A stretch of DNA of 64,000 nt from an uncultured Acidobacteriaceae bacterium. Lineage in GTDB: Bacteria; Acidobacteriota; Terriglobia; Terriglobales; Acidobacteriaceae. Position 1 is the stretch's first letter. Every line of letters starts with the position of its first letter. Shown here in pieces: positions 17,024-44,464 of the stretch. A program made the translations under genes and the position numbers. A model generated the notes under the pieces. It had not been told where the DNA came from, ran no database searches, and saw only the letters and a program-made list of their open reading frames with translations. The stretch spans positions 146,571 to 210,570 of the forward strand of contig CAVOTW010000031.1 of NCBI GenBank assembly GCA_963699405.1, in the 5' to 3' direction.

Positions 17024-18638
17024 CTAGCGCGGGATGTAATTGTCGAGCAGCGGAAGTATGTGCGACCCTAGTTTCATCATGCGGGCTTGGGCGGCATCGG
17101 GAGACTCGCCTTTGAACATCGGGGTCATCAGGCGCACCATTCCGCCGTCGCTGCGATTCCTGCGAATGGAGTCGGAAATCAGATAGTACTTGGACCACCA
17201 CTCGCTAGCCACCACCCGCCCATGCGCCTGAAACCAGTACAAGACCAGTTGCCGCTCGCCCGACTTTGAAACCACGTAGCGATTGACGGGAATAGTAGAT
17301 CCGTCAGGGCGGGGAAGCTGAATCACCTGCCGCACTGTCGGAATCCATCCCGCGCCCGGCAGGCAATGTTCTGGCGAATGGATCGTATCGCCTGCCTTTT
17401 GGGAAGAAAAATATACGATGTACAGATTGATCCAATTCTGCGACGGATCCGCGGCTTCGTAATCGCGCAGGAGGTACTCGGGATGTCCGAGGATATCAAG
17501 ATCATCCTGGCTGAGCGTGTCGTCGGTTCCGGTCCAACCATCAATCTGCGAGGGCAGGGAACTCAGGGGCTGGTGCGGAGGAATTGATCTCAGTGGTGGA
17601 ATGGGCCTGCAGACCTATGGCCGTTGCCAACATGGGCACGGCCACGATGCCAAAGCGAAGAGGCCCGCCCCGGATGGGAATCTCCCGAACGGCCCGCTCT
17701 TGGAGATGCTGAGGCGCGTCATTGCGCGGCGTCGCCTTTGGATTTGTGTTCGGAACCCAAATGAGCGAGATCAGGCGGTGTACAGCGAACAACATGATCA
17801 ACGCGACCGCGAAGATCAACATTCCCGAGAGGGCATGGTAAAAGCCCTCCGCTTGTTCAGCATGCCCGTACTGAACCAGCAAGCCGGTGCCAAAAACGCG
17901 GAAGCTGTTAGCCGCCACGGCGATAGGCACGGCTGCGACCGCGAGGACCACGCGCACCCACTTCCGAGGCTCCATGAGATAGCCGTAGATGATGGCCAGC
18001 GTCACCAGGGTAAGAAGCGACCGGATTCCGCTGCAGGCTTCCGCGACGTCCAACTGCATGGCAGCGAGGGTGAGCAAGTTCCCCTCTCGCAGCACGGGAA
18101 CGTGGACCAGTTCCAGTAGACCAAAGGCGAGTTTGGAAGCCAGCAACTGAAGCGGGAAAGTGACTCGATTGATGATCAGGGCGGGGATTGGGATCATCAA
18201 AATCAGAAAAGCCCACGGAAACAGCACGGCGCGAAAAAACGTCCATCCCTGAAACAGAATGATCAAGGCCGCCAGCAGAAGCAGCAGCGATACTCGCGGC
18301 AGAAAAATATCGGCACCCAAGACGCCCACAACCAGCAAGAACAGGCTCAGGTACGCCAGCGGAAGGCCCGTCCACGAAGGAGCGGATGCAATCGCCTGCA
18401 GGCGCTTGCGGTCTTGCCAGAGAACAAACAAGGCAAAGATCGGGACGAAGATCCCATGCTGGAAGTTCGGGTCGCTGCGGGGCCCGACCCATTGCAGGAA
18501 AAGGTGGGCGAGAATCGAAGCGTAAAGCCAGGCGAGGAGCAAAAGCAGCGCGATTCCCTGCCAACGGGGCAGGCGGGACGACCAACGATTCTCCCTGGTC
18601 GAGAGGAGTGGAACTGCCTCTGCGGAGTTACTCATCAT
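17024..18638 (-). pseudogene. Exosortase (XrtA-like) with C-terminal EpsI-family domain; one frameshift between the two parts
   Basis: ORF 17541-18638 is a multi-TM exosortase (LMIPIP, DVAEACSGIRSLLTL). My translation of the frame of ORF 17024-17335 stays open upstream to beyond 17600 and reads SLPSQIDGWTGTDDTLSQDDLDILGHPEYLLRDY...IHSPEHCLPGAGW...LVLYWFQAHGRVV, which is EpsI-like. The two frames meet at about 17575-17590. Confidence 0.85.
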
Positions 18639-19061: not shown

Positions 19062-19931
19062 ATGTTGAAACGCATCATTGCGGGAACCAAGCGTACATTT
19101 GGATTGAAGCCCGCCGGCCGTAATCTGACGGTCTTCCCCGACGATACTTTTCTTGTTTCCTATCCCAAGTCAGGGAATACGTGGTCGCGCTTTTTGATTG
19201 CGAATCTTCTTCGACCGCAGGAGAAGGTTGGTTTCTCGAACATTCACCAGATCATCCCCGGAATTGACGTGGTTCCCCATCGCGACATGCTGCGATTTCC
19301 GCGGCCGCGCATTATTAAGAGCCATCAGTACTTTGACCCGCGATATCAGCGGGTGGTTTACATCGTTCGCGATCCTCGGGATGTGGCGCTTTCGGAATAC
19401 CACGCTCAACGCAAGAGCAAGCGGATCGCCGACCATGCTCCGATCGAGGAGTTTGTCCGCCGGTTTCTAGCCGGCGAAAGCTGCGATTACAGTTCATGGC
19501 GTGAGCATGCAGCAAGCTGGCTCTCAACTCGTTATGGTCAGCCTGGATTCCTGCTGGTGCGCTACGAGGATATGTTGCAGGACACGTCGCGCGAGCTCTC
19601 CAGAATGGCTGGCTTCCTCGGGCTCCATCCGACAGCAGAGCTGATCGAGCAGGCAGTCTCCCGGAGTGGCGCGGACAAAATGCGAAAGCTGGAGAAATCT
19701 CAGGCCGATCTTTTCAATGCCACCAAGGACACACGCCAGGACATTCTGTTCGTCCGTAGCGCCAAAGCTGGTGGATGGCGTTCGGAGCTACCTGAGACCT
19801 GTATCTTGCAGATCGAGCAGGCGTGGGGACACCTGATCCGGTGGTTGGGATACGAAATGGTCACGGAAGAGAAGGGGAATACGGCCGAGCCCGCATTCCC
19901 GGTTTCGGCAGGGAACGGGCCTGGGCGATGA
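19062..19931 (+). CDS. PAPS-type sulfotransferase (Sulfotransfer_1-like)
   Basis: 5'-PSB loop SYPKSGNTWSRFL and 3'-PB motif YIVRDPRDVALS. Confidence 0.85.
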   Translation: MLKRIIAGTKRTFGLKPAGRNLTVFPDDTFLVSYPKSGNTWSRFLIANLLRPQEKVGFSNIHQIIPGIDVVPHRDMLRFPRPRIIKSHQYFDPRYQRVVYIVRDPRDVALSEYHAQRKSKRIADHAPIEEFVRRFLAGESCDYSSWREHAASWLSTRYGQPGFLLVRYEDMLQDTSRELSRMAGFLGLHPTAELIEQAVSRSGADKMRKLEKSQADLFNATKDTRQDILFVRSAKAGGWRSELPETCILQIEQAWGHLIRWLGYEMVTEEKGNTAEPAFPVSAGNGPGR

Positions 19932-20095
19932 CCGCCTGTGCTCTTCGTGCATTTGGCTTTTAGCTGAACGCTAAGAGCGTTATTTGAAGGGGTCTGGAAA
20001 CACATCGGACCATAGGAAAGTTCTTCATCCGACTGGTCTTCGCCAGCCCGGCCGAAAGAAGCCACTGTTTACGATATCGCGGCAACTGGGCGTGT

Positions 20096-21685
20096 ATGCA
20101 CAAGTTTGAAAAACGGCAAATCATCAAGAACGTAACGTCGAGTTGGTTTGCGCTGGGAACCAATATCTTAGTTGGACTCTTCCTGTCGCCGTTCATTCTC
20201 CACCGGCTGGGCGATTCCGCATTCGGCGTGTGGGTGCTGACTTTTTCAATAACGGGTTATTACGGCCTCTTCGATCTGGGAATCCGTTCTTCGATCGTTC
20301 GCTATGTTTCCAAACATCTAGCCACCGGGAGTAAGGAAGACCTCGCCAAGCTGATCAACACGGCGCTCTTCGGATACGGCTGTGTCGGGATGGTATCGCT
20401 GGTTGTAACCGCGGTCATGGCCACCTACGTGAACAGCTTGTTTAAGATTCCGCCCCAATTTCACTCGATCGCCCACCTACTGATCTGGATGGTCGGCGTT
20501 TCGGTGGCGCTTGGCTTTCCCCTGGGCGTCGTCGGCGGATTTCTGGAGGGTTTGCAGCGTTTCGAAGTTTTGAATCTCAGCACCGTGATCCAAACCCTTT
20601 TACGGGCGGCTTTGATCGTGCTGTCCCTGCGACATGGGATGGGGCTGCTGATGATCACCTTCATTACGGTCGCTCTGCCGATCCTTGCATCCATTGTTCG
20701 TGTGTTCATCGCGTTACACCTTTGTCCGGTTTTGTTTGGATGGAAATACATTGATCGATCGACTTTCCGTACGATCGTCCACTACAGCAGCACCACTTTC
20801 ATGATCATGGTCGCGGGCCGGCTCAAGTTTAAGACCGACGAACTCGTAATCGGCAGCATGATTTCGGCCGCGGCCATTACGTATTTCAATATTGGAGCGC
20901 GCATCGTCGATTATGCGGGCGGGGTCGTAAATTCGCTCGCGGGAAATTTTCTGCCCGTGGTCAGCGCGTCGGAAGCCACCGGGAATACAGGCCGTTTGCG
21001 CAGACTATTCGTGGCCGGCAACCGCCTCTGCGCGTTCACGATTTTCCCCATCACGGCCTCGCTTCTCATCCTGGGCAAGTCGGTCATCGAAGTGTGGGTG
21101 GGGAAGAAGTACATTGTCACCAGCTACCCCGTGCTCGTGATCATGATCATTCCTTCGACCATCATGTTCGCGCAAGCGGTGTCGGGACGAGTGCTGTTTG
21201 GAATGAGTAAACATCGCACTTGGGGCTGGGTGACGCTCATCGAAGGGGTTAGCAATCTGGGGCTCAGCATCTTTCTCGTGCCTTATTACGGAATCATCGG
21301 CGATGCACTCGGAACCGCAATACCGCTGACTTGTAGTTTTGTGCTCTTCATGCCGCGGCATCTGTGCCACTTGCTCGGAATCCGTCTCCGGACCTACCTG
21401 CGGGAAGCTTTCGTTCTGCCGCTTTTGATCGTCACGCCGATGGTGGCCGTACTTCTGCTGATGAAGAAATGGTTCATTCCGCACAACTACCGGCAACTCG
21501 CACTGCAACTGGCGATCGGAGGGACGGTTTACGGGGTGGGATTGCTCTGGCTGTATTCGACAAAAAGAATTCTGAAAACCGGGGAACTTGCAGCAAACCC
21601 GGAGGCCGAACTCCTCGAAAAAAAGAACGGGAAAAAGAAGATGAGCGACCCAGAGGTGAGTGTCGCGGAATACAGTGATCGATAA
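20096..21685 (+). CDS. Polysaccharide flippase (Wzx/MOP superfamily-like)
   Basis: 529-aa protein with roughly 12-14 hydrophobic segments. Its size and topology are typical of oligosaccharide flippases, and it is located in the EPS locus. Confidence 0.7.
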   Translation: MHKFEKRQIIKNVTSSWFALGTNILVGLFLSPFILHRLGDSAFGVWVLTFSITGYYGLFDLGIRSSIVRYVSKHLATGSKEDLAKLINTALFGYGCVGMVSLVVTAVMATYVNSLFKIPPQFHSIAHLLIWMVGVSVALGFPLGVVGGFLEGLQRFEVLNLSTVIQTLLRAALIVLSLRHGMGLLMITFITVALPILASIVRVFIALHLCPVLFGWKYIDRSTFRTIVHYSSTTFMIMVAGRLKFKTDELVIGSMISAAAITYFNIGARIVDYAGGVVNSLAGNFLPVVSASEATGNTGRLRRLFVAGNRLCAFTIFPITASLLILGKSVIEVWVGKKYIVTSYPVLVIMIIPSTIMFAQAVSGRVLFGMSKHRTWGWVTLIEGVSNLGLSIFLVPYYGIIGDALGTAIPLTCSFVLFMPRHLCHLLGIRLRTYLREAFVLPLLIVTPMVAVLLLMKKWFIPHNYRQLALQLAIGGTVYGVGLLWLYSTKRILKTGELAANPEAELLEKKNGKKKMSDPEVSVAEYSDR

Positions 21686-21739
21686 CTAGCTGTGAGAATT
21701 TTGGCAAGCCAGAGCTTTCGGCTCAAGGAAAGATCTCTT

Positions 21740-22645
21740 CTACTTCTTCTCAAAGTGGTTTCCGAAGTAGTAGATCCTGTGATGGGATTCTTTCAGCTCG
21801 GCGGCATTGAGCGTCAAATTCGCGCTATCGAGGCGACGAACATCGGCGTGATGGACCTTCTCCTGTTCATCTACCCATCCATCAACTGACTCCAAGCCCG
21901 ATCCGTCGGCTGTCAAGCCTTTGAGAAAATAGTGGGCCGGAACGATCGCCTCAGGATCATATTTCCGGACGATGGCATCCACTTCGGCGCGCGTGAGGAC
22001 GGTCTCAACCGGCAGAATGAGCACGTCAGCTTTTTTCAGATAACGGTCGAGAGAGGGATCGGGCACTGGTCGGTTGTCGCCCCAGACAACGATGCGCAAC
22101 CCTCCAGTCTCAATAATCTGAATCGCGTTATCGAGGTCTTTCGGGTTGTTGGGCGGACAAGTCTTGGCAATTGTATCCGCGGAACTTCGATCACATTGGT
22201 GCTTGTCGGCGAGGCCCGTAATTTCGATATCGCCGAGCTTAAACTGCCCAACCAGACGTTCGAGCACCACCAGTCCGTTCGGCCTCTCAACGGCATCGTG
22301 GTCGAAATGAGCGTGAGTTGAGAGAACTATGTCGACTCGGAGGGGCGGAAACTCGTTCAGGAACCACTTTGGGTAAAGGCCGGTTGGGTCATTCCGCCAC
22401 GGATCGGTAAGAACGGTCAAGCCGGACGGCGATGTGATCCGGAATGCATCGTGCCCGTAGAAATCGATCTTGACATTGCCGGGACGGGTCGGGTCGCCGC
22501 CGGCCTTCTGAATGGCGATTAGAGAATTATCATTCCATATGGAAGAAGAGGTAGCCGCAGGCGTCTCCACCTGCTGTGCGCGCGCGCCGAAGGTGAGCGC
22601 CGATATAACAGCCAAGACGATAACGGCGGACGTTTTCAGACGCAT
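21740..22645 (-). CDS. Secreted MBL-fold metallo-hydrolase
   Basis: Signal peptide MRLKTSAVIVLAVISALTFGARAQ (ATG 22645 inside ORF 21740-22771) and metal motif LSTHAHFDHD. Confidence 0.7.
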   Translation of the reverse strand: MRLKTSAVIVLAVISALTFGARAQQVETPAATSSSIWNDNSLIAIQKAGGDPTRPGNVKIDFYGHDAFRITSPSGLTVLTDPWRNDPTGLYPKWFLNEFPPLRVDIVLSTHAHFDHDAVERPNGLVVLERLVGQFKLGDIEITGLADKHQCDRSSADTIAKTCPPNNPKDLDNAIQIIETGGLRIVVWGDNRPVPDPSLDRYLKKADVLILPVETVLTRAEVDAIVRKYDPEAIVPAHYFLKGLTADGSGLESVDGWVDEQEKVHHADVRRLDSANLTLNAAELKESHHRIYYFGNHFEKK

Positions 22646-22706
22646 ACCATGCCTGCGTGCTTCAGAAACAACGCTAACTGCGGCCCGCAGTCCGCCTAAG
22701 TTCAGG

Positions 22707-23669
22707 TTATTGCTTAGGGTGAGAAGCGAAAAACTGCCAGCGTGTCGCGTTGTTGCCCGGCTCCCATTCATGTCCTATGTTTTCTTCCCAGATGAATTGG
22801 ACCTCAACGTTGTTGGTGCAGCCGGTGGCGTCATTGCCCGTAGTCGACGGGTTGGGCTTTTCGTCTTCGCACAAGGGTTCATCGTTCTGGAACACGGTGC
22901 AAGCATTCTGGGCCGTCCAGTAATTGAAGGTTTGATCCACGGTGGCCATATAATACGTATACCCCGAGTACTCGGTTGTGCCATTGTTGCAAGGCGGCAA
23001 AACGCGATCCTTGGTCCCTTGCCACTCCTGTACGGAAACGGGCGCCACCGGCGGACCGGGCAAGGTGATGGGAAGGGTGGACTGTCCCACGATCTGACCG
23101 GACCCGGGAATGATCGCCGCGACCAGGTCCGAGATTTCAACCCCGACCCGCTCGGCCATCATCGCACCCGACGACATACCCGCCACAAATACTTGCTTGG
23201 GGTTGACGTTGTACTGCGCCGTCAGGTTGAGGATCAACTGCCGCAAAAAGCCGGCGTCGTCAGGGCACGCCGTTGCGGGCGGCGCGGTGCACGTCCCGAC
23301 TTCAGCCGGCGTAAAGGCTTCGCTCAGGTAATACGCGTTCCAATTCCATTGCCCAGAGTTCGCGTTATAAGTTGAAGCCGGTTGCACCAAGACGAAGCCA
23401 TAAGTATCCGCGAACGTCTTCCATCCATAATTGATCGTGGTCGGCGGTTTGTTGGCCGGGAGCGTACTGGTTGCATGGAGCATGACCAGCAGGGGCGGGT
23501 TCGCTGGCAGGCCCGCGGGCACATAGACGTAGTAATAGCGAGTGACGCCATCCCAGACCGTGGTCTCGTTATAATTTTTCCCACCCTTTGCGCTGGCTAC
23601 CGTCGAAGTTGCCAACAGAAAGGCAGCGAAAGAAACGATCATTAATGAGGACAGGTTCTTGGCTTTCAT
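22707..23669 (-). CDS. Secreted esterase, PHB-depolymerase/LpqC family (paralog)
   Basis: ATG 23669 is preceded by AAGGAG. Signal peptide MKAKNLSSLMIVSFAAFLLATSTVASA. Motifs WDGVTRYYYVYVP...LLVMLHAT and VAGMSSGAMM. Long blocks are shared with 35028-36092 and 36165-37184. Confidence 0.8.
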   Translation of the reverse strand: MKAKNLSSLMIVSFAAFLLATSTVASAKGGKNYNETTVWDGVTRYYYVYVPAGLPANPPLLVMLHATSTLPANKPPTTINYGWKTFADTYGFVLVQPASTYNANSGQWNWNAYYLSEAFTPAEVGTCTAPPATACPDDAGFLRQLILNLTAQYNVNPKQVFVAGMSSGAMMAERVGVEISDLVAAIIPGSGQIVGQSTLPITLPGPPVAPVSVQEWQGTKDRVLPPCNNGTTEYSGYTYYMATVDQTFNYWTAQNACTVFQNDEPLCEDEKPNPSTTGNDATGCTNNVEVQFIWEENIGHEWEPGNNATRWQFFASHPKQ

Positions 23670-23770
23670 AAAACTACTCCTTGGTCCAATTAAGGGCATA
23701 TCGACAATCCCTTGCCGATTCGTATGCCTGTCACTACCACTTCTCCCTCTTCTTCTTCGCTTTCGCTGGC

Positions 23771-24970
23771 TCAGTAATCGTCAGGCTCACCTGTGTCGGA
23801 AAGTTCGGCCGGCGTAAGCTTGCGAGATTTGATCGCGTGAAACTCCCGGGGACGCGGCGACGGCTGGAAAAAGCCGCTCAGATCATCCGCAAAACTGTCG
23901 GCCCAGACGCCGGGGCCAATCAGCCCGAGTGAAAAATTGTTCTCGACAAAATGCAGGATGGAGCCGAAGTCGTGCACATCATTATCGACGTACCCGGCGG
24001 GAGTGTAAGCCGAAATCACGAGTAATGGCACACGAAATCCATAGCAATACTCTGTGCACCATCCTGTGTTATTGACCAACGGCGGAACGTGATCGTAGAA
24101 GCCTCCCCAATCATCCCACGTTACGATGATGGCAGTGTTCTGCCAGTATGGAGAGTCTCCTACGGCGTCCACAATCGACGCAACCCAAGCCGGGCCGCCA
24201 CCAGTGCTGGTAGCAGGATGATCGCTATAAGCCTTGGCTGGGGTCACCCAACTAACATTGGCAAGCGTTCCGTCGGCTATGTCATTCAAGACCTGGGGCG
24301 GATTTAAAACAATGTTTGGCGACGTAGTATAAGTGGAAAGTGAATCTGGAGCATTCCAAATATGCTGTCTAGGGGCAGCATAGTACTTCCACGTCAAGCC
24401 TGCGTTTACCAGCAAGTCGATCAATGACGATCTGTCAAAGCACGGATAGACGGAACCGATGGTGCCATCAGGCGCAATGGTGGGAACAACCGTATCAGGG
24501 GGTGCGGAACAGCCATACTTTGGGCTTTGACCGATCTCGTCGAAAACCAATAAATCACTATCGTCAGACGGGGCTGATGAACCTGAAACAAGAAAGTGAT
24601 GTGCTGGATAACTCGCTCCTTGATTTGTCTGAAACATTCTGTTCGCAAAACCGTACTGTGCGGCTAGATCCCAATAGGGGTCTGCCCCGCTAATAACATA
24701 ATTACGCGCTGTTTGCGGGTACTTACCCTTAGTCTCAGCTAGATACCCTCCATGAGTGTGATTAAAATCATTGCCTTTCGACAGGTCTTCTCCCTTGGAT
24801 TTGGTACCATTGATCTGCGCATCTATACCGGGAAGACCAGCCGCTCCAAAAAGATTATCTGGTGTACGGTTTTCCTGGATGATGATGATGATGTTCTGGA
24901 ACTGCGGGCTTTGAGCATCCATAAGTCCCGTCAGAAGCAATGTGAGCGATCCAAGCAATAGTGGTTTCAT
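23771..24970 (-). CDS. Secreted phosphoesterase family protein (phospholipase C/AcpA type)
   Basis: Signal peptide MKPLLLGSLTLLLTGLMDAQ. Family N-terminal motif IIIIIQENRTPDNLFG. C-terminal motifs TWDDWGGFYDHVPP and GFRVPLLVISAY. Confidence 0.75.
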   Translation of the reverse strand: MKPLLLGSLTLLLTGLMDAQSPQFQNIIIIIQENRTPDNLFGAAGLPGIDAQINGTKSKGEDLSKGNDFNHTHGGYLAETKGKYPQTARNYVISGADPYWDLAAQYGFANRMFQTNQGASYPAHHFLVSGSSAPSDDSDLLVFDEIGQSPKYGCSAPPDTVVPTIAPDGTIGSVYPCFDRSSLIDLLVNAGLTWKYYAAPRQHIWNAPDSLSTYTTSPNIVLNPPQVLNDIADGTLANVSWVTPAKAYSDHPATSTGGGPAWVASIVDAVGDSPYWQNTAIIVTWDDWGGFYDHVPPLVNNTGWCTEYCYGFRVPLLVISAYTPAGYVDNDVHDFGSILHFVENNFSLGLIGPGVWADSFADDLSGFFQPSPRPREFHAIKSRKLTPAELSDTGEPDDY

Positions 24971-24995
24971 TTGTATCTCCTGCTGTTGCCACTTA

Positions 24996-26636
24996 CTACT
25001 TCTTGTTTGTTTTTGCCTTTGCCTTTGTTCCAGTCAGACCAAAGATCTGCAATTGCTGGTTACTGGCCACGAACACCTGCCCGTTGGCCACGACGGGAAC
25101 CAAGTTGGCATTGCCGCCCGTATTCGGCCACGCGCCCGCAGTGGCTTCGAACAGCGTCTTCATCTTTTTTGTTCCAGAGTCCGGATTAAAGGCAAAAAGA
25201 CTGATTGCTTTGGTTGCTTTCGCAGGGTGAGACAATGCCCAAATGATGGGATTCGCGTTACCGCTCGACGAAATGGTGGTGAAGAATCCCGGGTCTTGGG
25301 TACCACCGGTAGTGACAGAGACTTTTGCTTTCGTCAAAGCTACCGTGGGGGACGTTTGCAGCTTCCAGACGATGGCCGTCCTGCCGCCGCTACTCACCAC
25401 CCTCCCGAATCCGTCTGCCGGATCGACGAAGTACGACTCGCCGCACCAGCAGCGGCCGACGGGGTAGCTGCCGAGCACATTGTTCGCGGTGGGCGAGTAA
25501 CCACCCAGACTGTCTTCGTTCATCAGGAACATAGTGCCGCTCTTGCCCGCAGCGACCGCCAGATGTGGCGTCGATCCTGTCTGATCGGGCAGAACCATTA
25601 CCCCGCCTGAACCGAAGTCCGAGTCCTTCTCATCCATGGTCGCTTGATTATCCGGGGTAAAAAGGTCGAGCACCGTGGTTAGCGTATTCGAAATCTTGAC
25701 CACACTTTCCTGAATGTTGGTGACGCCGTCATAGGTGCCGGATTCTGAGTTGCCGGTTACGAACAGGATGTTGCCCGCATCGTCGGCCGACGGTCCATAG
25801 CCTGACATCCAGATCGAGGAGAGAAAAAAGTTGTTGGGGCTGGTTGGCTGCTGGTCGTTGAGCTGGTTCGAGGGAAATGGCGCCAGCGAACCCGCTGTCC
25901 AACCCAGCAGCCAGCCCCGCGAGAGATTGACCGCCTTATCGCAGAAGCTGCCAAAGCCCGCATAAATGCTGCCATTGGCGAGCAACAACGCCGGGCGCTG
26001 CCGCTGATATTTCGCGTTGAAGTTGAAGGTTGTTCCATCTGTCAGCGTATGCGATGCGGCGACGACTTGCGGCGTCACCTTGTCGGTCAAACTTCCCAGA
26101 TCGAGCGCGTGCAGTGTGTAGGCAGGTGCGCTCATACCCTGGGTATAGGTCATGACATAGAGGGTGTTGCTGCTGGGGTCGATCACCGGCGTTGAAGTTA
26201 TCCCGACGTTGGGGCCATTGTTGGCGCATTTTCCGGGGAGGGATTGTTGCGACACTGGCGCCCCGAAATTCGGATTCAACAGCACCGTCCCGGTATGAAC
26301 ATCGATGGCATACACCGTGTCGTTTTCCGTCGCTACATAAACCACATCGTGCGTGCCCTGATAATTTCCGGCGGTGATCTGCACCCCCGGGATCACTAGT
26401 GGCTGCGCGTCCACCTGGTCGTCGAGTGCCACAGTTTGCAGCAGGCCGAACGTCGTCGGGCCGACGTTGGCGGGCGTCAGCACGGACTCATTCTGATTCC
26501 AGCCGGTGCGGTAGTTGTCGTAGTGGTACGTTGTGATCGCCGTCTGGCCAGCCGCGAGCAAGGCGCTCGTGCTGATGAGAACCAATACGGCAATTGCTGC
26601 CGCGCCGCCGATGCGGTAGTTGCAACGATTTGTCAT
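24996..26636 (-). CDS. Secreted PQQ-like beta-propeller repeat protein
   Basis: ATG 26636. Signal peptide MTNRCNYRIGGAAAIAVLVLISTSALLAAGQ. YHYDNYRTGWNQNESVLTPANV followed by repeated VYVAT/VYAID-type blades. Confidence 0.6.
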   Translation of the reverse strand: MTNRCNYRIGGAAAIAVLVLISTSALLAAGQTAITTYHYDNYRTGWNQNESVLTPANVGPTTFGLLQTVALDDQVDAQPLVIPGVQITAGNYQGTHDVVYVATENDTVYAIDVHTGTVLLNPNFGAPVSQQSLPGKCANNGPNVGITSTPVIDPSSNTLYVMTYTQGMSAPAYTLHALDLGSLTDKVTPQVVAASHTLTDGTTFNFNAKYQRQRPALLLANGSIYAGFGSFCDKAVNLSRGWLLGWTAGSLAPFPSNQLNDQQPTSPNNFFLSSIWMSGYGPSADDAGNILFVTGNSESGTYDGVTNIQESVVKISNTLTTVLDLFTPDNQATMDEKDSDFGSGGVMVLPDQTGSTPHLAVAAGKSGTMFLMNEDSLGGYSPTANNVLGSYPVGRCWCGESYFVDPADGFGRVVSSGGRTAIVWKLQTSPTVALTKAKVSVTTGGTQDPGFFTTISSSGNANPIIWALSHPAKATKAISLFAFNPDSGTKKMKTLFEATAGAWPNTGGNANLVPVVANGQVFVASNQQLQIFGLTGTKAKAKTNKK

Positions 26637-26757
26637 GTTCTGACCCTTAGGAGAAGTGAGCAGCCGGGGGACGCTGCATCGGAGTTTCCGCGACAATACC
26701 ACATATTGACGGTCGTTTCCAGTTGGAGCGGGCCGTTTTTTTCCTCTGAAAGTGAGC

Positions 26758-28056
26758 TCATGGTTCGGTGTGATTCGCCTTGGATTCTGACAAATGCCCA
26801 CTGTCGTTTTTCGTAGAAGAATTCTTTACCATGGACTGATTTGGAGGATGGTCCAGAATCTGAAAAAGCTTGTCGGCAGCGATCTGATTCCCCGTTGCGT
26901 TCAAATGCGCGATACCGCGGTATAGGGGAGCTTGTGTGTCATCCAAAATATCTCCGAGATAATACAAATCCGGGCGGTTGACTGCGCGGCACTCTTCGTA
27001 GGCCGCGCGATACACCGACTCCATGCCAGGAAATTTCTTGTTCAGCCGCCGGTTCAGGACTGCCTCATCCGGGGTCAGTTGCTTGTGGCCAACGGCCATA
27101 TTGGGATACCAGGCAAAGATGGGACGGAAGCCGTACTGTTTGGCCAAGAGGTCAATAATGTCCATGTTTTCCTGATAATTCTGCATAATGGCACGGGACC
27201 ATGTCTGCGCGTCAGTCTCAGAAACACTATTGCTGCTCTTCTGCTTGGGCGATACTCTAGCCGCGATGTTCTCCAAAAACCGATAAGTGTTGCTTTGACT
27301 GAGGTAGGAGAATCCTGATTTTTTCTCCGTGATCCAGCCCTCGAGATAGTTCTTGAAGTCGAGATAATTGCTGTGCACGTCCACTTTCTTGTTCTCGTAA
27401 GCAGTAAACGCCTCTGTGCCGCCGTCGTAAAACAAGACAGCATCCGGCTTGCGGTCCGCGTGCTTGAGTTCTTGAATTAGCTCGAAAAGCTCTTGCGTAT
27501 TGGCCCAGCCTTTTTCCCCGTAATTCACGATGCAGACTTGCTTGCCCGCCTTTTCGTAATCTGCCGCCACGAGCGATGGAATAGTTTCCGAGTCGGGACT
27601 GCCCCAGCCCCACATCACGGAATCTCCGAACATCCACACTGTGAAAGTCTTTCCATCGCAGTGATTGTGGAGAGTGCGCCGGATACCATCCGCGTCGATT
27701 GAAATCGCACTGCCGTTGAAGGGAGCTCGGCGCCATAGAACGTAGGGCTCGTATTGCACTTTCTGCGCGGGCTGCTGTTCTTTCCAATACTCGCGCTCTT
27801 CGGGAGTTCCTTGAACAACCGCGGCTTCGACTTCCGGGCCCATGCTGTGCTGATTCTCGATTCCACGCCTGTAGCTGAACAACTCCATGCCAACAATGAA
27901 AATCAACGCCAGGGTTACGGCTACGCATAGGCGCAGCAGGAAACTGCGCGCAACGGACCTGTAGCTGGTCGTGGGCGGTATCCCAGAGGATTCGGCTGTG
28001 CGTTCCCTTTCCGGTGAACCGATCATAGTTTTTGTGTTTCCTTCTACGTCCTTCAT
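26758..28056 (-). CDS. Membrane-anchored SGNH/DltD-like protein (paralog 1)
   Basis: N-terminal TM LLRLCVAVTLALIFIVGMELF and the GDS block TVWMFGDSVMWGWGSP. Colinear with 39333-40582. Start at ATG 28056 or 28026. Confidence 0.65.
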   Translation of the reverse strand: MKDVEGNTKTMIGSPERERTAESSGIPPTTSYRSVARSFLLRLCVAVTLALIFIVGMELFSYRRGIENQHSMGPEVEAAVVQGTPEEREYWKEQQPAQKVQYEPYVLWRRAPFNGSAISIDADGIRRTLHNHCDGKTFTVWMFGDSVMWGWGSPDSETIPSLVAADYEKAGKQVCIVNYGEKGWANTQELFELIQELKHADRKPDAVLFYDGGTEAFTAYENKKVDVHSNYLDFKNYLEGWITEKKSGFSYLSQSNTYRFLENIAARVSPKQKSSNSVSETDAQTWSRAIMQNYQENMDIIDLLAKQYGFRPIFAWYPNMAVGHKQLTPDEAVLNRRLNKKFPGMESVYRAAYEECRAVNRPDLYYLGDILDDTQAPLYRGIAHLNATGNQIAADKLFQILDHPPNQSMVKNSSTKNDSGHLSESKANHTEP

Positions 28057-28329
28057 GAAACTAGAATAACGCCCACATTGCATGTCTCGTCTGGTAGCGG
28101 GCCAGACGGTGAATGATACCGATAAGGAGCAAGCGGGACTCCATTCTCTGCATAACTCACCCAACTGTCGACAGTTATCGTCTGTTTTTTCAATAGTTTA
28201 GAGTTTAATGCCGAGCATGCCTGCACCACATGCTTCGAGTCAGGCAAAAAGTGGGAAAACATTTTCCATACGAAGGAATGACAAGACTCCCGTTTTACCG
28301 CCGCAAGCTGGGCCGGCAAAATGGAGCAG

Positions 28330-29439
28330 TTATCGCTTTCGAGTGTCGTTCGGACTCCGCCCTCGTATTTTGGATGCCAACGCATACGCGCTCCGGCGAA
28401 GGCCAGCCAGTGCGTTTGCCAGAGGCATCACTCCCAGTCGAGACGCGCGTTTGAGGTCAGCCCGCAACCGTCGGCGCTCCTCGTAGAGGCCGGAGATGAT
28501 GAGGTTCCTCTCGATGATCTCATCATAGAATCTAGCCTCAGGGATGACGGCTGGCGGCGGGTTTGGGACCGCGGACTGGCCGCCGCGCCACGAATCGCGG
28601 TCATAACCCAGTCGCTTGAAATCTTCCTGATAGAGCGAATAGACTTTGTCGGCTAGATCCTGATTATAAGTAGCGAGGCCGACTGGCGCCGAGACGTTTT
28701 TCTTGCCTCCCATAAGTGGTTCTGCAAGCCCCAGATGTTGTTGGAACCGGGCCATGCTGGCGGCCATGTTCTCTAGCTGACCCACATGTGAAAAGTTCAG
28801 GGCGTCGAAAAACAGGTGATCAACTTGCCGCCGCCAGTGTGGATCGGCGTCGCTTAAATCGCGTTTGGCGTGGAGGTAGTTCACGAACTCATCAAACGCA
28901 ATGAGCTCCTTCGCATGCATATCGGGCACTCGGCCTTTGATCGCAAGATACAAGCGTTCGGCGCCCGGTTCGCAGGGGACAACTTTGTTCTTCCACGCCG
29001 AAACCAAACGCGTATACGGATTGCGGACGATCGTAAAGCGAAAGAAACTGTCGGACTCAAGCACTTCTTTTTGCGTCGCCTCATCCAAATCCACCAGAGA
29101 AGGCAGCGGCACATTTTCGCGAGCGTGAACAAACATGTCACGGCGGGTTTCCATCAGCTTGCCTACAAAAAGCTGAAGCGGCGGCGCGCCAACTTTGCGA
29201 CGCAGCAGTTCCTTCATTTGCGTGCAGGCTGCCTTGGGAACTTCGAAATAAAGGTAACGCTTACTGACGTCGACAAAACTGGAGTGGCGAACCCGCTGCG
29301 ATATATCGGTGGGGTCGATATGCGGGTAATGACTTAAGATCTTTTGTACAACGTATGGATAGGTCATAGCTGACGCGCGTCGAACCGCGATTGAATTCTG
29401 CAAGGTGGAACGCATTTCAATCCGGCCTAGTTTGCTCAC
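28330..29439 (-). CDS. Sulfotransferase family 2 (carbohydrate sulfotransferase-like)
   Basis: YFEVPKAACTQMKELL (PAPS 5'-phosphosulfate loop), IVRNPYTRLVSAWKNKV and DPHWRRQ are the hallmark spacing of Sulfotransfer_2. Confidence 0.75.
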   Translation of the reverse strand: MSKLGRIEMRSTLQNSIAVRRASAMTYPYVVQKILSHYPHIDPTDISQRVRHSSFVDVSKRYLYFEVPKAACTQMKELLRRKVGAPPLQLFVGKLMETRRDMFVHARENVPLPSLVDLDEATQKEVLESDSFFRFTIVRNPYTRLVSAWKNKVVPCEPGAERLYLAIKGRVPDMHAKELIAFDEFVNYLHAKRDLSDADPHWRRQVDHLFFDALNFSHVGQLENMAASMARFQQHLGLAEPLMGGKKNVSAPVGLATYNQDLADKVYSLYQEDFKRLGYDRDSWRGGQSAVPNPPPAVIPEARFYDEIIERNLIISGLYEERRRLRADLKRASRLGVMPLANALAGLRRSAYALASKIRGRSPNDTRKR

Positions 29440-30352
29440 GTGATCGATGCGGGAGTTCGTACCCGGTCAGTCGCATCAGGTGTCCCCAGGCAGATTCAAT
29501 TTCCGCGATCGATTTCGCGCTGAGGGCTGTCCGCCACTGGCCTGATTTCGCCTGGCGCACAAAGGGAATATCTTTGCGGGTCTCTCGAGTCGTTTGCCAT
29601 TGCAGGTTCTGCGCGGATTCCAGCTTTCTCATCGAATCGGCCGAACTACGTGCGACGGCTTGTTCGATCCGCTCGGAACTGGCTTCGAGTCCCAGGAAAT
29701 CAGCGATCCGGTGAAGTCCGGCGTGGGCGTCCTGCAAAAGGTCCTCGTAGCGCACCAGAAGGAACTCACGCCCATGTCCTCGCGCGCCAGGTGCGTCCAC
29801 CGTTCCGGGAGAACCAACAGGAACACCAGCGCCACGCGACGGCGCACCATTCTGATGCAAGGTGAACTCCGCTACATTCGACGCGTTGACGAGCCAGCTT
29901 CCAGCGTGTTCACCCCAGGTTCCATTGTAACTTCGGCCCGGAACCAGCATCCTCGTGATAAAGGCCTCGAGCGAAAACGAATCGTCGATGTTCTTAACTT
30001 TCTTCGCGTAGTAGTAAAGAGAAACCGCCACGTCTCGCGGGTCGCGAATGATGTAGATCACGCGACGGTAACGCGGATCAAAGCAGTCATGACTCTTGAT
30101 CAGTCGGGGCGGTTTTAGCTTGCGGAAATCGGCCCGAGGAAATACGGCAATGTCGGGAACGACGCGCTCAATATCGGAAAAACCGACAGGTTTGTCGGGA
30201 TTCATCAGGTTGCCCAGCAGAAAACGGGTCCAGGTATTGCCCGATTTCGGAAACGACACGAGAAAGATGTCATCGGGCCAAACCTCGTGACGGCGCAGGG
30301 AAGAGTCCCTGCCGAGAGCATATCTTGCGGCACTTCTCAATTGGCCGAACAC
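29417..30352 (-). CDS. PAPS-type sulfotransferase (Sulfotransfer_1-like)
   Basis: SFPKSGNTWTRFL and YIIRDPRDVAVSLY. Carries a ~35-aa Gly/Pro/Ala-rich insert before LLVRYEDLL that the 19062 paralog lacks. Confidence 0.85.
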   Translation of the reverse strand: MFGQLRSAARYALGRDSSLRRHEVWPDDIFLVSFPKSGNTWTRFLLGNLMNPDKPVGFSDIERVVPDIAVFPRADFRKLKPPRLIKSHDCFDPRYRRVIYIIRDPRDVAVSLYYYAKKVKNIDDSFSLEAFITRMLVPGRSYNGTWGEHAGSWLVNASNVAEFTLHQNGAPSRGAGVPVGSPGTVDAPGARGHGREFLLVRYEDLLQDAHAGLHRIADFLGLEASSERIEQAVARSSADSMRKLESAQNLQWQTTRETRKDIPFVRQAKSGQWRTALSAKSIAEIESAWGHLMRLTGYELPHRSREQTRPD

Positions 30353-30425
30353 TCAGCTGTTCCTCGATTTGCCAGTTTAGCAGGGGCGAACTTCGTATTT
30401 CAAGACGGCGGGAATCCGATGCTCT

Positions 30426-31292
30426 TCATCGGTACTGCTCCACCTCGCGTACCTGCAGCACATATCCCATCGCTGTCATCACCGGACCCCAGACGGATTC
30501 AATCGTCTGAACCGCCGTCTCCGGCAGAACCGTACTCCACTTTGCCGGATCCTGCGGGGTTGCATGACCCTGTGCCGCCTGCAAGGCTGAACGGATTCGC
30601 TCCGATGGTGCATCAAGACTTACTCCAGCAAGGTTCAGAAACCCAGCAACTTTTTCAAGCGCCGCCTCGGGATCACTAAGGAGATCTTCGTACCGCACCA
30701 GCAACATGGCGTTCGGGTCGCGTCCGCGCGCACCGATCCAACTCATCACATTCTCACCCCAGGAAGCGGGCGTGCCCAGAAACTCATCTTTCAAGCGGCT
30801 CCGGTAGGAGAATCCCCGGTTGGCCTTGATCGAGCCGGAAAACTCCTCTGCCCATCCGCCGCGGTATTCATCGGTCTTCGTCGTGAAGAATTCTGGAACG
30901 AATTGTTCAAGGCTTATGGAATCGTCGATGCTTCCCCCTAGTCGCCGCTGCTCGTAAAGTGCTACGGCAACGTCCCTGGGGTCGCGAACCAGGTAAATTG
31001 CTTTGCGATACTCCGGGTCGAAGCACTCATGGCTGAAGATGATTCGGGGTTGTTTCATGCTGGCGAACCCGCGCCGCGACTCGTGATACAAATCCGGCAA
31101 ACGTGACATGACGTTGGCGTCTGTCGCAGGATTCGAAGGATCGAGAAGATTCGCAATCAGGCGTCGCAGCCACTGCCCTCCGGAGCCGGGGTATGCCACC
31201 ACGAACAGGTCATCCGGAAGCCGGAACAAGGCTCTGCCGGCGATGTCCCGCTCCAAAAAATAGTTCGCCAGGTAAGCCAATCGGATCATCAT
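30426..31292 (-). CDS. PAPS-type sulfotransferase (Sulfotransfer_1-like, divergent P-loop)
   Basis: AYPGSGGQWLRRL, YLVRDPRDVAVALY and LLVRYEDLL. Confidence 0.8.
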   Translation of the reverse strand: MMIRLAYLANYFLERDIAGRALFRLPDDLFVVAYPGSGGQWLRRLIANLLDPSNPATDANVMSRLPDLYHESRRGFASMKQPRIIFSHECFDPEYRKAIYLVRDPRDVAVALYEQRRLGGSIDDSISLEQFVPEFFTTKTDEYRGGWAEEFSGSIKANRGFSYRSRLKDEFLGTPASWGENVMSWIGARGRDPNAMLLVRYEDLLSDPEAALEKVAGFLNLAGVSLDAPSERIRSALQAAQGHATPQDPAKWSTVLPETAVQTIESVWGPVMTAMGYVLQVREVEQYR

Positions 31293-31561
31293 CGGTGTTT
31301 CCCGGTTCTCAATGCTGAAAACCTCCTTGTGGCGAGCCGTTGAAAATGTTGGGAGAACGCGAAAATAACTGTTTCTAAGAGTTGGCGTTTCCTTTCATCA
31401 ATTTTATCCTGTTTCCGAAATTTAACTATTTGCCGTTCGGGAACCCTATCGGCTGTGAACTTCAGGAAGCAAGAGGCCGACAAATCGAGATGTGTTAACC
31501 TGCAGGGGAATAATCGGTGCACCCGAAACCGGCCGACAGACAATACTTTAGATTTCGACGA

Positions 31562-32560
31562 ATGAGCAGCGCCGGATCAGACGCAACGCCTCCTCAAAGC
31601 CCGACCCCGAAGGTCAGCGTCATCATTCCCGCATACAATACTGCGCCCTTCATAGCGGAGACATTGAACTCCGTTTTCGCCCAAACCTTTCGGGACTTCG
31701 AGGTGATCGTCGTCAACGACGGCTCGCCGGATACGTCGGAACTCGAAGTCGCGCTTGAGCCCTACAGGAATCGTATCCGCTATATCAAACAGGAGAACAA
31801 AGGTCTTCCGGGCGCGCGGAACGCGGGCATTGGTCTGGCGCGCGGCGAACTGCTCGCCTTCGTCGATAGCGATGACCTCTGGATGCCTGATTATCTCGCC
31901 GCGCAAGTGGAGTTTCTTGACGCCCATCCTCAGGTTTATGCGTCCATCTCGGACGCGCTGCTTTTCGGATCGGGCGGAGACGTGGTATGGAGGATGCTGA
32001 AAGAAGGCGCGGGTCCTATCCTCGGGTTTGAAGAGATGCTGAAGCGAAAAGGGGGACAACTCCCGTCTGCCATGGTCGCTCGGCGGCGACGAGTGGTCGA
32101 CATGGGATTATTTGACGAGCGTATACGCATTGGCGAGGACGTCGAATTCTGCGTGCGTCTCTCGTTTCCCGACGGCGCCATTGGCTACCTCGGACGTGTG
32201 CTGGTGAAATACCGCCAACGCCCGGGCAGCTTAACGGAAGATCCGCGACGTCGAAAGTGGAAGATTGCGGAGATAGAATCTTTGCGCAGGATCGGCGAGA
32301 ACCTGGCTCTCAACGAGGCTCAGCGCAGGTTGCTGGATGACGAGATTGCCGCCGCAGCCGCGGCGGTGGCGTTGGGCGATGCGTATCATCACATATCCCT
32401 GCACGAATACGGACCGGCTGTTGAATGCTTCCGCTCGGCCAACGCCTACTATCGGGATACGCGCGTGAGCGTTGCCTCATTTTGTCTTCATGCCTTGCCA
32501 TGGCTGGCAGGTCCAGTCCTGAACTGGCGCTGGAAGCGGCGTCCCGTCCGGCGGATCTGA
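31562..32560 (+). CDS. Family 2 glycosyltransferase
   Basis: VSVIIPAYNTAPFIAETLNSVFAQTFRDFEVIVVNDGSPD and FVDSDD. Start at ATG 31562 within ORF 31517-32560. Confidence 0.85.
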   Translation: MSSAGSDATPPQSPTPKVSVIIPAYNTAPFIAETLNSVFAQTFRDFEVIVVNDGSPDTSELEVALEPYRNRIRYIKQENKGLPGARNAGIGLARGELLAFVDSDDLWMPDYLAAQVEFLDAHPQVYASISDALLFGSGGDVVWRMLKEGAGPILGFEEMLKRKGGQLPSAMVARRRRVVDMGLFDERIRIGEDVEFCVRLSFPDGAIGYLGRVLVKYRQRPGSLTEDPRRRKWKIAEIESLRRIGENLALNEAQRRLLDDEIAAAAAAVALGDAYHHISLHEYGPAVECFRSANAYYRDTRVSVASFCLHALPWLAGPVLNWRWKRRPVRRI

Positions 32561-40676: not shown

Positions 40677-42168
40677 CTAGAACAGGGCATACATTACCGG
40701 TCCGGTTTCGGCGTGGCCGGGTTGGAAAATTACGCTCAAATAGAGTGCCAGCACCACCACCACGGGAGTGATCCACACCCAGCGTTCGTTGGCCATGATG
40801 CCGAGCCAACTTGATAGCGCGCCCGGCGCGGTTTCCTGGCGTCTGCTGCGCGGCTTCTCCTAAACGATCGAGAAGGACCGTGCCGCCGATGACCGCGAAA
40901 TACCCGACCGTCGCGACCAGCGTCAGCACATAAAAGCTGGGATCGAACGAGCGATGCAGATAACCGTGCGGCGAAACCAGTCCCTTCAGCATGGCGACGG
41001 CTTGGCGGATGCTTTCCGCGCGAAAGAAAATGTAGCCGATGCAGACGGCGGAAAACGTCAGCGCCCAGGAGATGGCGGTGGCCACGGCGCCGGTCCATTC
41101 GAAGCCCACGCGCTTGCGGAACTCCTGCCATTGCCGGTGCAGGACCAGCAAGATGCCGTGGTAGGTGCCCCAGAACAAGAGCAGGACGTTTCCCTTTTCC
41201 GACGGTGTAATGTGCCACACGCCGAAAACAAACATGGCGATTACGAGCGAAAGGTTGCGCCACCACACTTCGCGGCGCGCAGTCGCTAGCGGCAGAAACA
41301 GAAAGTCGCGAATCCAGAACGACAGCGACATGTGCCACCGCGTCCAGAACTCCGAGATCGTGGTGGAGAGATACGGGCGATTAAAGTTCTCCTGCAACTG
41401 GAGCCCGAACAGCCGCGCCGCGCCAATCACGATATGAGTGATTCCGCAGAAGTTGAAGTAGAGCTGGAATCCATAACCGAGAATCATGCACCAGACGTCG
41501 ATTCCGCTCAGGTGTGCGGCATGGTTGCTGAAAGCCGCTTCCACGCCCGCTCCCGTGTAGAGCCCTCCGGCCATGACGTTGCCGAGATATACCATCATGC
41601 TGCCGATCGCTATGCGGCGCACGCCGGTCTTCAAATCGTCAGCGCTCGCCGACCACTCCTGGCGGAATTGCGGCAACATGGCTGACATCCGGCAGATCGG
41701 GCCCTTGGAGAACCGTCGGCCAAAACGACATGTAGAGGCAAAACTCCAGCAGGGTCGGGTTCAACTCTTCTTCGCGATAGAGCTCCAGCAGATAACTCAT
41801 CGCCTGGAACGTCCAGAAGGAGATGCCAGCGGGGAACAGGATTCGCTTGACCAGCAAGAGCGGCGAACCGGCTGGCGCGACATTGCCCAGCAAGGGCAGG
41901 TACTTGAAAACACTCAGCAGGGCGATGTTGAAGAGGAGTCCCGTCCACAGCCGGCTTGCGCTGATTCGCTTTTTCAGCCACTCGCCCAAGGCGTAGTTCA
42001 CCAGCGAGCTGAACAGCAGCACGACGATGAGCCACGATCCCCAGCTTATGTAGAAAAGCCAACTGGCAACCAGGTAAAGCACTTGCCGGGCGGTGACGAG
42101 CGGGTCCGCATGGCCACCAACCACACCACTACGATCCCGATTGCATAGGCGATAAGTTTTGTCGTCAT
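40677..42168 (-). pseudogene. MBOAT family O-acyltransferase (DltB/AlgI-like); about three frameshifts
   Basis: FWTRWHMSLSFWIRDFLFLPL (MBOAT His motif) lies in ORF 40573-41688 and the N-terminal TMs lie in ORF 41639-42124. My translation gives the C-terminal TM tail SSWLGIMANERWVWITPVVVVLALYLSVIFQPGHAETGPVMYALF-stop (stop at 40677-40679) in a third frame, and a possible N-terminus MTTKLIAYAIGIVVVWLV from ATG 42168. Junctions lie at about 40822-40832, about 41698-41704 and about 42112-42124. Confidence 0.8.
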
Positions 42169-42661
42169 GGATGGTTCGTCGAATCCCTGGAAATCATCCT
42201 TGGAATTGTTAAGAAGTATGAATATTCGGCAGCTGTACCGGCATGTTTCATGCTCTCGCGGGGATTGCAGGTTGTCAACCTATCGACGGTTGGCGAATCG
42301 GTACGAGCCCTTCCGGAGAAATCGTCAGGACGGTGCCCATTCTCACCCGAGGGCCGAAGGCCTACATCACGCCAGCGACAGAAAACTCTTTCTGGCTTTG
42401 GTACGTCCGTGTGCGGCTTTCCCCGTAGAACATACCGCTTTACTATGTTTGCCCCACGCTTCACTGGGCTTGTGCATTCCCGCCAAGGCATGTTGGCAAG
42501 TAGTGCCCATAGATTACCGATGGTGTGGGCAAATACTTTTCCCATTAGTCCGCAATGTGGTAACGTGGAGGGCAAGATCGTTTCGTGGAGGATATCCCTC
42601 GCAAGTTGTTGAAACATTGGGTATAGATCGTTCCAGCGACGGGCTCGAATTTTACCCTGAT

Positions 42662-42677
42662 TGGCAGCACGTGTGCT
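42662..42677 (+). promoter_or_regulatory. Candidate sigma54-type -24/-12 promoter
   Basis: TGGCAGCACGTGTGCT has GG (42663-42664) and GC (42675-42676) in the canonical register. It lies about 85 nt upstream of ATG 42762. Motif match only. Confidence 0.3.
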
Positions 42678-42761
42678 CTACCGGTCGAGTAGCCCTTTGT
42701 CCAAGACGTCGACCCCCGCTGTCTTGGCCGCAAAAATCGCAAAGCGGAAAAGAAATTAGGA

Positions 42762-43707: not shown

Positions 43708-43769
43708 AACAGCGAATCTAATTTCTTAAAAACTTCGAAACCTGAGAGGAAACTAGAGGAACAGAAGAT

Positions 43770-44426: not shown

Positions 44427-44464
44427 AGGAACGCAGTCGCGATAAGGATTTGCGGGTGAAGAGC

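Follow-up and report, generated by a model that had tools for sequence, protein, structure and literature searches.

Sulfotransferase genes beside a Wzx-like flippase mark a probable sulfated-exopolysaccharide module in soil and peat Terriglobales and include a conserved lysine-less paralogue

We identify a cluster of four genes with the sulfotransferase (ST) fold, ST-A to ST-D, flanking a Wzx-like flippase gene in a 64 kb stretch of DNA (the window) from a Terriglobales metagenome-assembled genome (MAG). We propose, with a probability of roughly 0.6, that this region serves to tailor and translocate the product of a Wzx/Wzy-dependent, XrtA-like exosortase-associated exopolysaccharide (EPS) locus, and that this product is a sulfated polymer. 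A sulfated surface polysaccharide is probably the best reading of the genes, and the evidence that carries it is the fold and family of the encoded proteins, the conservation of their motifs, purifying selection, synteny, and the presence of a single flippase. An ST-tailored Wzx/Wzy polysaccharide locus is undescribed so far in this phylum, and its unusual component is ST-D, which has lost the catalytic lysine. The host is a Terriglobales (Acidobacteriota) bacterium from soil or peat: close homologues retrieved in our searches are labelled Terriglobales or Acidobacteriota MAGs, and window DNA occurs in soil and peat metagenomes.

Results

Four sulfotransferase genes of two families

A tblastn search of the window with the four proteins returned exactly four ST-fold genes. 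Three belong to PF00685 and one to PF03567, all above the curated Pfam gathering cut-off of 22 bits that applies to both families, which bears out the count, families and positions given in an earlier note on this DNA (Table 1). A search of NCBIfam gave no family name for any of them. ST-B probably begins at the ATG at 29367, yielding 345 aa as called in relatives, rather than the start of the open reading frame (ORF) at 29439. All four genes are intact in the window and in L004, a near-identical contig from an independent assembly (L-numbers denote comparison loci or contigs). All four are under purifying selection, with dN/dS between 0.10 and 0.22 (ST-A, 0.10; ST-B, 0.11–0.15; ST-C, 0.11–0.14), and a hydropathy scan detected no transmembrane (TM) segment or signal peptide in any of the four products.

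ST-A and ST-C, which are 50% identical, contain the complete motif set of SULT-like enzymes. The 5'-phosphosulfate-binding (5'-PSB) loop with the catalytic Lys reads YPKSGNTW in ST-A and FPKSGNTW in ST-C, and both proteins have IKSH with the catalytic His, RDPRDVA(L/V)S with the 3'-phosphate-binding (3'-PB) Arg and Ser, and a C-terminal FVRxAKxGxW. The corresponding elements of ST-A (K36, H88, R103, S111, and the Gly-rich FVRSAKAGGW) are invariant across 12 homologues and match SULT2B1b, its nearest entry in the Protein Data Bank (PDB; E=3e-23), residue for residue in the alignment. The canonical motifs of ST-C were seen in an alignment of the three paralogues and are kept by ST-C orthologues. 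An insert of about 45 aa splits the sulfotransferase domain of ST-C; we rejected a frameshift artefact as its origin, as the same insert is present in L004 and L005.

ST-B contains the motifs VPKAACT and VRNPYTRLVS followed by long C-terminal helices, and among 26 homologues K45 is nearly invariant while R115 and S123 are invariant. We take VPKAACT and RNPYTRLVS to resemble the motifs of CHST/HNK-1ST enzymes; PF03567 includes carbohydrate sulfotransferases. The AlphaFold2 (AF2) model of ST-B (pLDDT 75) gave weak Foldseek matches (E of at least 0.02, TM-score about 0.2), nearly all of them to sulfotransferases, including heparan sulfate 6-O- and 2-O-sulfotransferases. We assign ST-B to its family on the Pfam match and these motifs. 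Judged by their motifs, ST-A, ST-B, and ST-C appear catalytically competent.

A conserved paralogue that lacks the catalytic lysine

The earlier note held that all four proteins carry recognisable motifs for binding 3'-phosphoadenosine 5'-phosphosulfate (PAPS). This stands for ST-A, ST-B, and ST-C, which are canonical, and fails for ST-D, whose supposed PKSGNTW-type loop reads YPGSGGQW, with Gly in place of the catalytic Lys. In addition, ST-D has IFSH in place of IKSH, reads RDPRDVAVA at the next motif, and lacks the eight-residue C-terminal segment FVRxAKxG, so that the 3'-phosphate motif is deleted. A comparison of the three clades identified K36G, N39G, T40Q, and K86F as changes specific to ST-D, which is 38% identical to ST-A. 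What ST-D retains is the SULT fold (AF2 model and Foldseek; probability 1.0, TM-score about 0.6), the catalytic-base His, and RDPRD; the 3'-PB Ser position is Ala in the window and either Ala or Ser across the clade.

These features are widely conserved. About 99% of some 100 ST-D clusters, spanning 50–100% identity, have the YPGSGGQW loop, with a handful of single-residue variants, and IFSH is kept as well. The next-nearest proteins beyond the ST-D clade are canonical ST-C orthologues, 52–57% identical to ST-C. ST-D lies directly upstream of an ST-C-type gene in 8/8 lineages examined (window, L004, L005/6, L049, L050, L089, L090, L094, and L095), most of which also have a divergently oriented GT2 glycosyltransferase gene next to ST-D. 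We rejected a frameshift artefact as the source of the odd motifs, which are identical or conserved in independent assemblies and orthologues. A decaying pseudogene was rejected too, given the intact ORF, a dN/dS of 0.22 against an 80%-identical orthologue, and the retention of the variant loop across about 100 clusters. In our reading, ST-D arose from ST-C by tandem duplication and appears to have lost canonical PAPS catalysis while keeping a selected function.

Separately, a third recurrent ST paralogue in the cassettes of L007–L053 (for example L007 10867–11760) has the loop YPRSGNTW, in which the 5'-PSB Lys is replaced by Arg. This form accounts for 34 of the 139 ST ORFs collected.

The sulfotransferase genes surround the only candidate flippase of an exopolysaccharide locus

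ST-A is followed on the same strand by the gene for a Wzx-like flippase of the multidrug/oligosaccharidyl-lipid/polysaccharide (MOP) superfamily. A six-frame hydropathy scan of the window found two proteins with 10 TM-like segments, namely this Wzx and a Wzy-like protein within the EPS locus; because the second is Wzy-like, the Wzx beside ST-A is the sole candidate flippase for the EPS pathway in the window. The flippase and GT2 that the earlier note described as flanked by ST genes are both present, the GT2 lying just outside the range given there. In the PDB this GT2 comes closest to chondroitin synthase K4CP, GalT1, and PglI rather than to ArnC or DPMS, and the divergent GT2 is conserved in L049, L089, L094, and L095. 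We considered whether it could be a GtrB/ArnC-like polyprenyl-phosphate glycosyltransferase that supplies a flipped sulfated monosaccharide donor, and rejected this, as the nearest structures are soluble GT-A enzymes, the protein is free of TM segments, and the scores for ArnC and DPMS are far lower.

As a group, the ST genes have an exosortase-EpsI gene to one side and, to the other, the sigma-54 regulator gene and the export genes of an XrtA-like Wzx/Wzy locus. L014, from another Acidobacteriaceae MAG, has a string in the same syntenic slot, in the order exosortase-EpsI, GT2, ST, ST, GFO/IDH oxidoreductase, NAD-dependent epimerase/dehydratase, Wzx, a gene without assigned function, sigma-54 activator, and export protein; L005/6 and L020 are similar. 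The best NCBIfam matches of the downstream machinery are TIGR03027, TIGR03007, TIGR03015, TIGR03018, TIGR03013, TIGR03097, and TIGR03108, mostly just below their cut-offs (TIGR03015, 304.7 vs 324.5 bits; TIGR03013, 378.6 vs 393.4; TIGR03027, 159.9 vs 180), and several of the genes scored against XrtA-system models are shortened by assembly frameshifts. The exosortase-EpsI fusion passes the generic model TIGR02602 but falls short of the XrtA model (179.9 vs 208 bits); it is intact in L001 (536 aa, PF09721 plus PF11984). Besides the genes listed in Table 1, the machinery includes a GT2, three GT4 glycosyltransferases, and a polysaccharide deacetylase. Exact-sequence look-ups of the export and ATPase proteins, made to find an intact downstream locus, returned no record.

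A recurrent cassette across Acidobacteriota

We compared 49 acidobacterial species-representative loci, collected by a genome scan and then by tblastn with the window proteins, and counted neighbours within 10 kb of an ST gene. An orthologous Wzx, 55–89% identical, was present in 31 of the 49 loci, a GT2 in 27, and a UDP-galactopyranose mutase (UGM) in 19; two or more STs were found in 33 loci and three or more in 11. The UGM heads the GT2–ST–Wzx cassette (for example L007 6613–7977; also L009, L015, L017–L019, L021–L023, and others). It is of the eukaryote type (PDB 4dsg, E=5e-116) and implies galactofuranose in the glycan. Other loci with the ST-D/ST-C pair hold rmlABCD, Wzy, or a heparinase II/III-like gene. 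The neighbours of the ST genes are consistently glycan-synthesis genes, and the occurrence of homologues among such genes, both in the 49 acidobacterial loci and on pSymB of S. meliloti, favours a carbohydrate substrate.

One of these relatives deserves separate mention. On the forest-soil contig L090, the heparinase II/III-like gene (12002–14362; PF16889/PF07940) directly follows the ST-D/ST-C pair, which hints at a uronic-acid-containing, glycosaminoglycan-like sulfated polymer in that organism.

Neighbouring genes and sequence quality

ST-D, ST-C, and ST-B form a co-directional string on the minus strand with five genes for secreted hydrolase-like proteins. These five genes lie between ST genes, and they recur beside ST cassettes in 10 of the 49 acidobacterial loci. 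Their products are a metallo-beta-lactamase (MBL)-fold protein, an Esterase_PHB-like protein, a PF04185 phosphoesterase, a protein termed 'Prop' with only a sub-threshold PQQ_2 match, and a GDSL/SGNH-like protein. The idea that they are PEP-CTERM substrates of the exosortase was rejected, as we found no PEP-CTERM tails. Beyond the GT2 come more genes for secreted phosphoesterases and esterases, and then a DltA/DltB-like pair, which separates the ST module from the EPS regulator and export genes and may add an ester modification, D-alanyl or acyl, to the polymer.

Several observations on the secreted proteins stand apart from sulfation. Four secreted Esterase_PHB-like paralogues (7428–8999, 22707–23699, 35028–36092, and 36114–37184) have a distinctive common C-terminus, GNDATGCTNN.EVQF.WE...HP, and Esterase_PHB-like, PF04185 phosphoesterase, and GDSL-like genes recur beside ST cassettes in other Terriglobales. 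The N-terminal hydrophobic region of the MBL-fold protein (PF13483; 21740–22771, minus strand) marginally matches PF07790, the archaeal type IV pilin N-terminal family (25.6 bits, cut-off 25.2), and is probably a mere signal or anchor segment.

Compared with L001 and L004, two near-identical contigs of another assembly, the window departs mainly through single-base insertions, most of which fall in short homopolymer runs. The insertion at 15342 joins a K+ channel gene and a YjeF gene into one, and that at 17584 breaks the exosortase-EpsI gene in two. Similarly split-looking genes in the window encode the DltA-like and MBOAT-like proteins, the sigma-54 activator, the priming transferase, the AsnB-like amidotransferase, and FdnG. 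The split genes are probably long-read assembly errors, not pseudogenes.

Near the start of the window, at 1090–1148 on the plus strand, a SECIS_3 element (RF01989; 67.9 bits, which exceeds the gathering score) lies within a fragmented gene for the molybdopterin alpha subunit of a formate dehydrogenase. A 4Fe-4S gene, recognised by eye from its Cys-rich N-terminus, and a membrane-protein gene with four TM-like segments follow; the ORFs of this region are at 1117–3760, 3847–4773, and 4703–5518. Together, the element and the formate dehydrogenase genes point to a selenocysteine-containing formate dehydrogenase in this Terriglobales MAG.

Table 1. Features of the window, with positions counted from its first nucleotide
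Feature	Position	Strand	Support or remark
ST-A, SULT-like sulfotransferase	19062..19931	+	Sulfotransfer_1 PF00685 E=5e-38, 131.5 bits
ST-B, Sulfotransfer_2-family sulfotransferase	28330..29367	-	PF03567 E=9e-23, 82.1 bits
ST-C, SULT-like sulfotransferase	29417..30352	-	PF00685 E=7e-33, 114.6 bits, in two stretches
ST-D, ST-fold paralogue of ST-C	30426..31292	-	PF00685 E=2e-19, 70.2 bits
Wzx-like MOP flippase	20096..21685	+	PF01943/PF13440; 10 TM-like segments
GT2 (GT-A) glycosyltransferase	31517..32560	+	PF00535 E=1e-32; divergent from the ST-D/ST-C/ST-B string
Exosortase-EpsI fusion	17025..18638	-	PF09721 E=1e-67; TIGR02602 174.8 bits, above cut-off
Five secreted hydrolase-like genes	21740..28164	-	Pfam matches; N-terminal hydrophobic segments
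DltA-like adenylating enzyme	37667-39240	-	split by frameshift
DltB/MBOAT-like membrane acyltransferase	40573-42124	-	split by frameshift
XrtA-like EPS machinery	42167..61839	+	Pfam; best NCBIfam matches
Sigma-54 activator	~42.2 kb		start of EPS machinery
Outer-membrane polysaccharide export (OPX) protein	43770-44426	+	
Chain-length determinant	45916-47508	+	
ATPase	47517-48470	+	
Tyr kinase	48467-49375	+	
Priming phosphoglycosyltransferase	49512-50764	+	
Wzy/O-ligase-like protein	53014-54546	+	
AsnB-type amidotransferase	55626-57634	+	
Methyltransferase	59896-60696	-	
Insertions/differences in window vs L001, L004	9207, 9284, 9364, 9426, 15342, 17584, 29400-29450 region		

Discussion

We propose a pathway in which the priming transferase, together with the GT2 and GT4 enzymes, would assemble the repeat unit on undecaprenyl diphosphate at the cytoplasmic face, and in which soluble, cytoplasmic ST-A and ST-C (PF00685) and ST-B (PF03567) would then transfer sulfate from PAPS to distinct sugar hydroxyls. 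The dedicated Wzx encoded beside ST-A would flip the sulfated unit, and the Wzy-like polymerase, the chain-length/Tyr-kinase pair, and the OPX protein would polymerise and export the product. PAPS is confined to the cytoplasm. A cytoplasmic donor, soluble STs, and a flippase in tight linkage with ST-A together make sulfation of the undecaprenyl diphosphate-linked unit before flipping the most economical model; PAPS as the donor and a glycan as the acceptor we infer from the families, motifs, and genomic settings of the enzymes. The earlier note expected several sulfation positions from four STs. Multiple distinct STs are indeed present; ST-D is probably non-catalytic, and the three enzymes that look competent, drawn from two families, would give at most three sulfation specificities.

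Several points weigh against this proposal. Our literature search found no paper linking Acidobacteria with sulfotransferases or sulfated EPS, and no ester-sulfate chemistry for acidobacterial EPS. A search for RNA sequencing runs that would show transcription of the locus listed none. No APS-kinase or CysD/N-type domain is present in any window ORF scanned, in keeping with the earlier note, which had reported no PAPS-synthesis genes (cysD/N/C) there. The cassette UGM is missing from the window, and just 2 of the 49 acidobacterial loci have an exosortase or export gene no more than 10 kb from the cassette; the link between the cassette and the XrtA locus may be lineage-specific. The solved structures nearest to ST-A, ST-C, and ST-D are small-molecule SULTs, and ST-B has neither a significant PDB match in sequence and profile searches nor a significant structural match.

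The earlier prediction of a sulfated EPS gains from the XrtA-like Wzx/Wzy locus, the slot shared with other Acidobacteriaceae MAGs, and the position of ST-A beside the only flippase, but the class of polymer is less secure, with an O-antigen, a capsule, or a protein-linked glycan as possible products in place of a released EPS. Sulfation is known for lipopolysaccharide (LPS) in S. meliloti, through LpsS, and for the capsule in M. loti, through KpsS. One alternative is accordingly that the cassette sulfates a surface glycoconjugate other than the XrtA-associated EPS, such as O-antigen/LPS, capsule, or glycans placed on secreted or PEP-CTERM proteins by an O-ligase-like enzyme, and that its place beside the exosortase is incidental. 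The 47 loci with no exosortase or export gene in reach are what this alternative would lead one to expect, as are L007 and L009, where the cassette sits away from any exosortase amid unrelated housekeeping genes, and the best match of the Wzy-like protein is the 'putative O-glycosylation ligase' family TIGR03097. We nevertheless consider it unlikely, given that the EPS locus in the window has no other flippase, that L014, L020, and L005 share the syntenic slot, and that a regular-expression scan of all six-frame ORFs of the window found no PEP-CTERM-tailed protein. A sulfated product of the XrtA-like locus remains our preferred reading.

ST-D, we propose, is most likely not a fourth sulfotransferase but a non-catalytic partner of ST-C that serves as a scaffold or in substrate presentation. 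An active enzyme with altered chemistry, using another sulfate or phosphate donor or running a non-transferase reaction on the ST fold, strikes us as decidedly improbable. The strict conservation of the Gly-rich YPGSGGQW, the retained His and RDPRD, and the dN/dS of 0.22 all speak for a function under selection, and a loop of this Gly-rich, P-loop-like kind might still bind phosphate. Yet three PAPS-contacting elements are gone, through K36G with N39G and T40Q, through K86F, and through the FVRxAKxG deletion, and strict adjacency to a canonical paralogue in eight lineages is a pattern typical of pseudoenzyme partners.

That the PF00685 proteins are small-molecule or lipid sulfotransferases (acting on hopanoids, carotenoids, phenolics, or glycolipids) unrelated to polysaccharide synthesis is very unlikely: their best PDB matches are the cytosolic SULT2B1, SULT1C2, and SULT1E1 and the glycopeptide-antibiotic enzymes StaL and Teg12, but the genomic context leads us to attribute this to the composition of the PDB, which is biased toward eukaryotic SULTs, given the consistent adjacency to Wzx, GT2, UGM, rml, and Wzy genes in dozens of species and the placement of ST-B in a family that includes carbohydrate sulfotransferases.

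Terriglobales are among the most abundant bacteria of soil and peat, and ester sulfate makes up a large share of soil organic sulfur. We raise the tentative possibility that a UGM–GT2–ST(n)–Wzx cassette runs through the whole lineage and equips Terriglobales in general to produce sulfated surface polysaccharides, probably with galactofuranose in them, that these polymers are a major unrecognised source of soil ester sulfate, and that the machinery includes an undescribed enzyme/pseudoenzyme pair in which the Lys-less ST-D controls where ST-C places sulfate. If so, a conserved ST–flippase cassette in a dominant soil phylum would provide concrete candidate genes and a testable source of soil ester sulfate, together with new, non-cyanobacterial enzymes for the production of sulfated polysaccharides. 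ST-D would offer a tractable case of how pseudoenzymes arise and act in glycan tailoring.

Comparison with known systems

Known relatives resemble parts of this locus to different degrees. With the Golgi PF03567 carbohydrate sulfotransferases (heparan sulfate 2-O/6-O-ST and CHST/HNK-1ST types), ST-B shares Pfam family membership; it differs in being bacterial, cytoplasmic, and without a TM anchor, and in having no significant sequence or fold match to the solved members. The eukaryotic cytosolic SULTs (SULT2B1b, SULT1E1, and others) share their fold and all PAPS-binding and catalytic motifs with ST-A and ST-C, and the fold with ST-D, but act on small molecules and are only about 20–30% identical to the bacterial proteins, which are encoded in glycan loci. 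A SULT-like PF00685 protein with a YPKSG loop, about 32% identical to ST-A, is encoded on S. meliloti pSymB (CP073680.1, KEM44_10395) amid OPX, GT4, O-antigen-ligase-family, and chain-length genes and a second ST; that cluster is proteobacterial, uncharacterised, and differently ordered, and the incomplete PLSDB gene table lists no Wzx beside the ST.

The XrtA/PEP-CTERM EPS loci defined in NCBIfam/TIGRFAMs share with the window the best matches for exosortase-EpsI, OPX, chain-length determinant, ATPase, Tyr kinase, priming transferase, O-ligase/Wzy-like protein, and AsnB-type amidotransferase. The differences are that the window scores fall mostly just below the cut-offs and that the window holds no PEP-CTERM substrate.

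Sulfated glycoconjugates are chemically widespread in biofilms and sludges, while the genes behind them are unknown (PMC10483923, on granular sludge). Genetically defined bacterial pathways for sulfated EPS are essentially limited to cyanobacteria, as in the synechan xss cluster of Synechocystis sp. PCC 6803 (pSYSM, L093), which combines STs, Wzx/Wzy, and glycosyltransferases (Maeda et al. 2021, PMC8205485). The same paper states that no ST genes had been found in other bacterial EPS clusters, and it is the sole one we found that brings exosortase and sulfotransferases together in an EPS context. The xss cluster is the nearest functional analogue of the window locus, with clear differences. 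The phylum and habitat are not the same, and the window has a sigma-54 activator instead of XssQ/R/S-type regulators and adds a PF03567 enzyme and a Lys-less paralogue. Sulfation is chemically proven for synechan and predicted for the polymer of the window locus. XssA and XssE, to our knowledge the only genetically validated bacterial EPS sulfotransferases, best match Sulfotransfer_3 (PF13469), and we rejected orthology with the window STs, as BLASTP aligned them with ST-A over only about 100 residues at E values of 6e-6 to 4e-5. What the two systems share is a Wzx/Wzy heteropolysaccharide cluster with several STs interleaved with glycosyltransferase genes and a flippase. The xss cluster also contains a gene annotated 'cyanoexosortase A system-associated protein' (L093 22552–22992), which parallels the exosortase linkage in the window, and in synechan synthesis, too, sulfation is presumed to take place on the lipid-linked unit in the cytoplasm, as we propose here.

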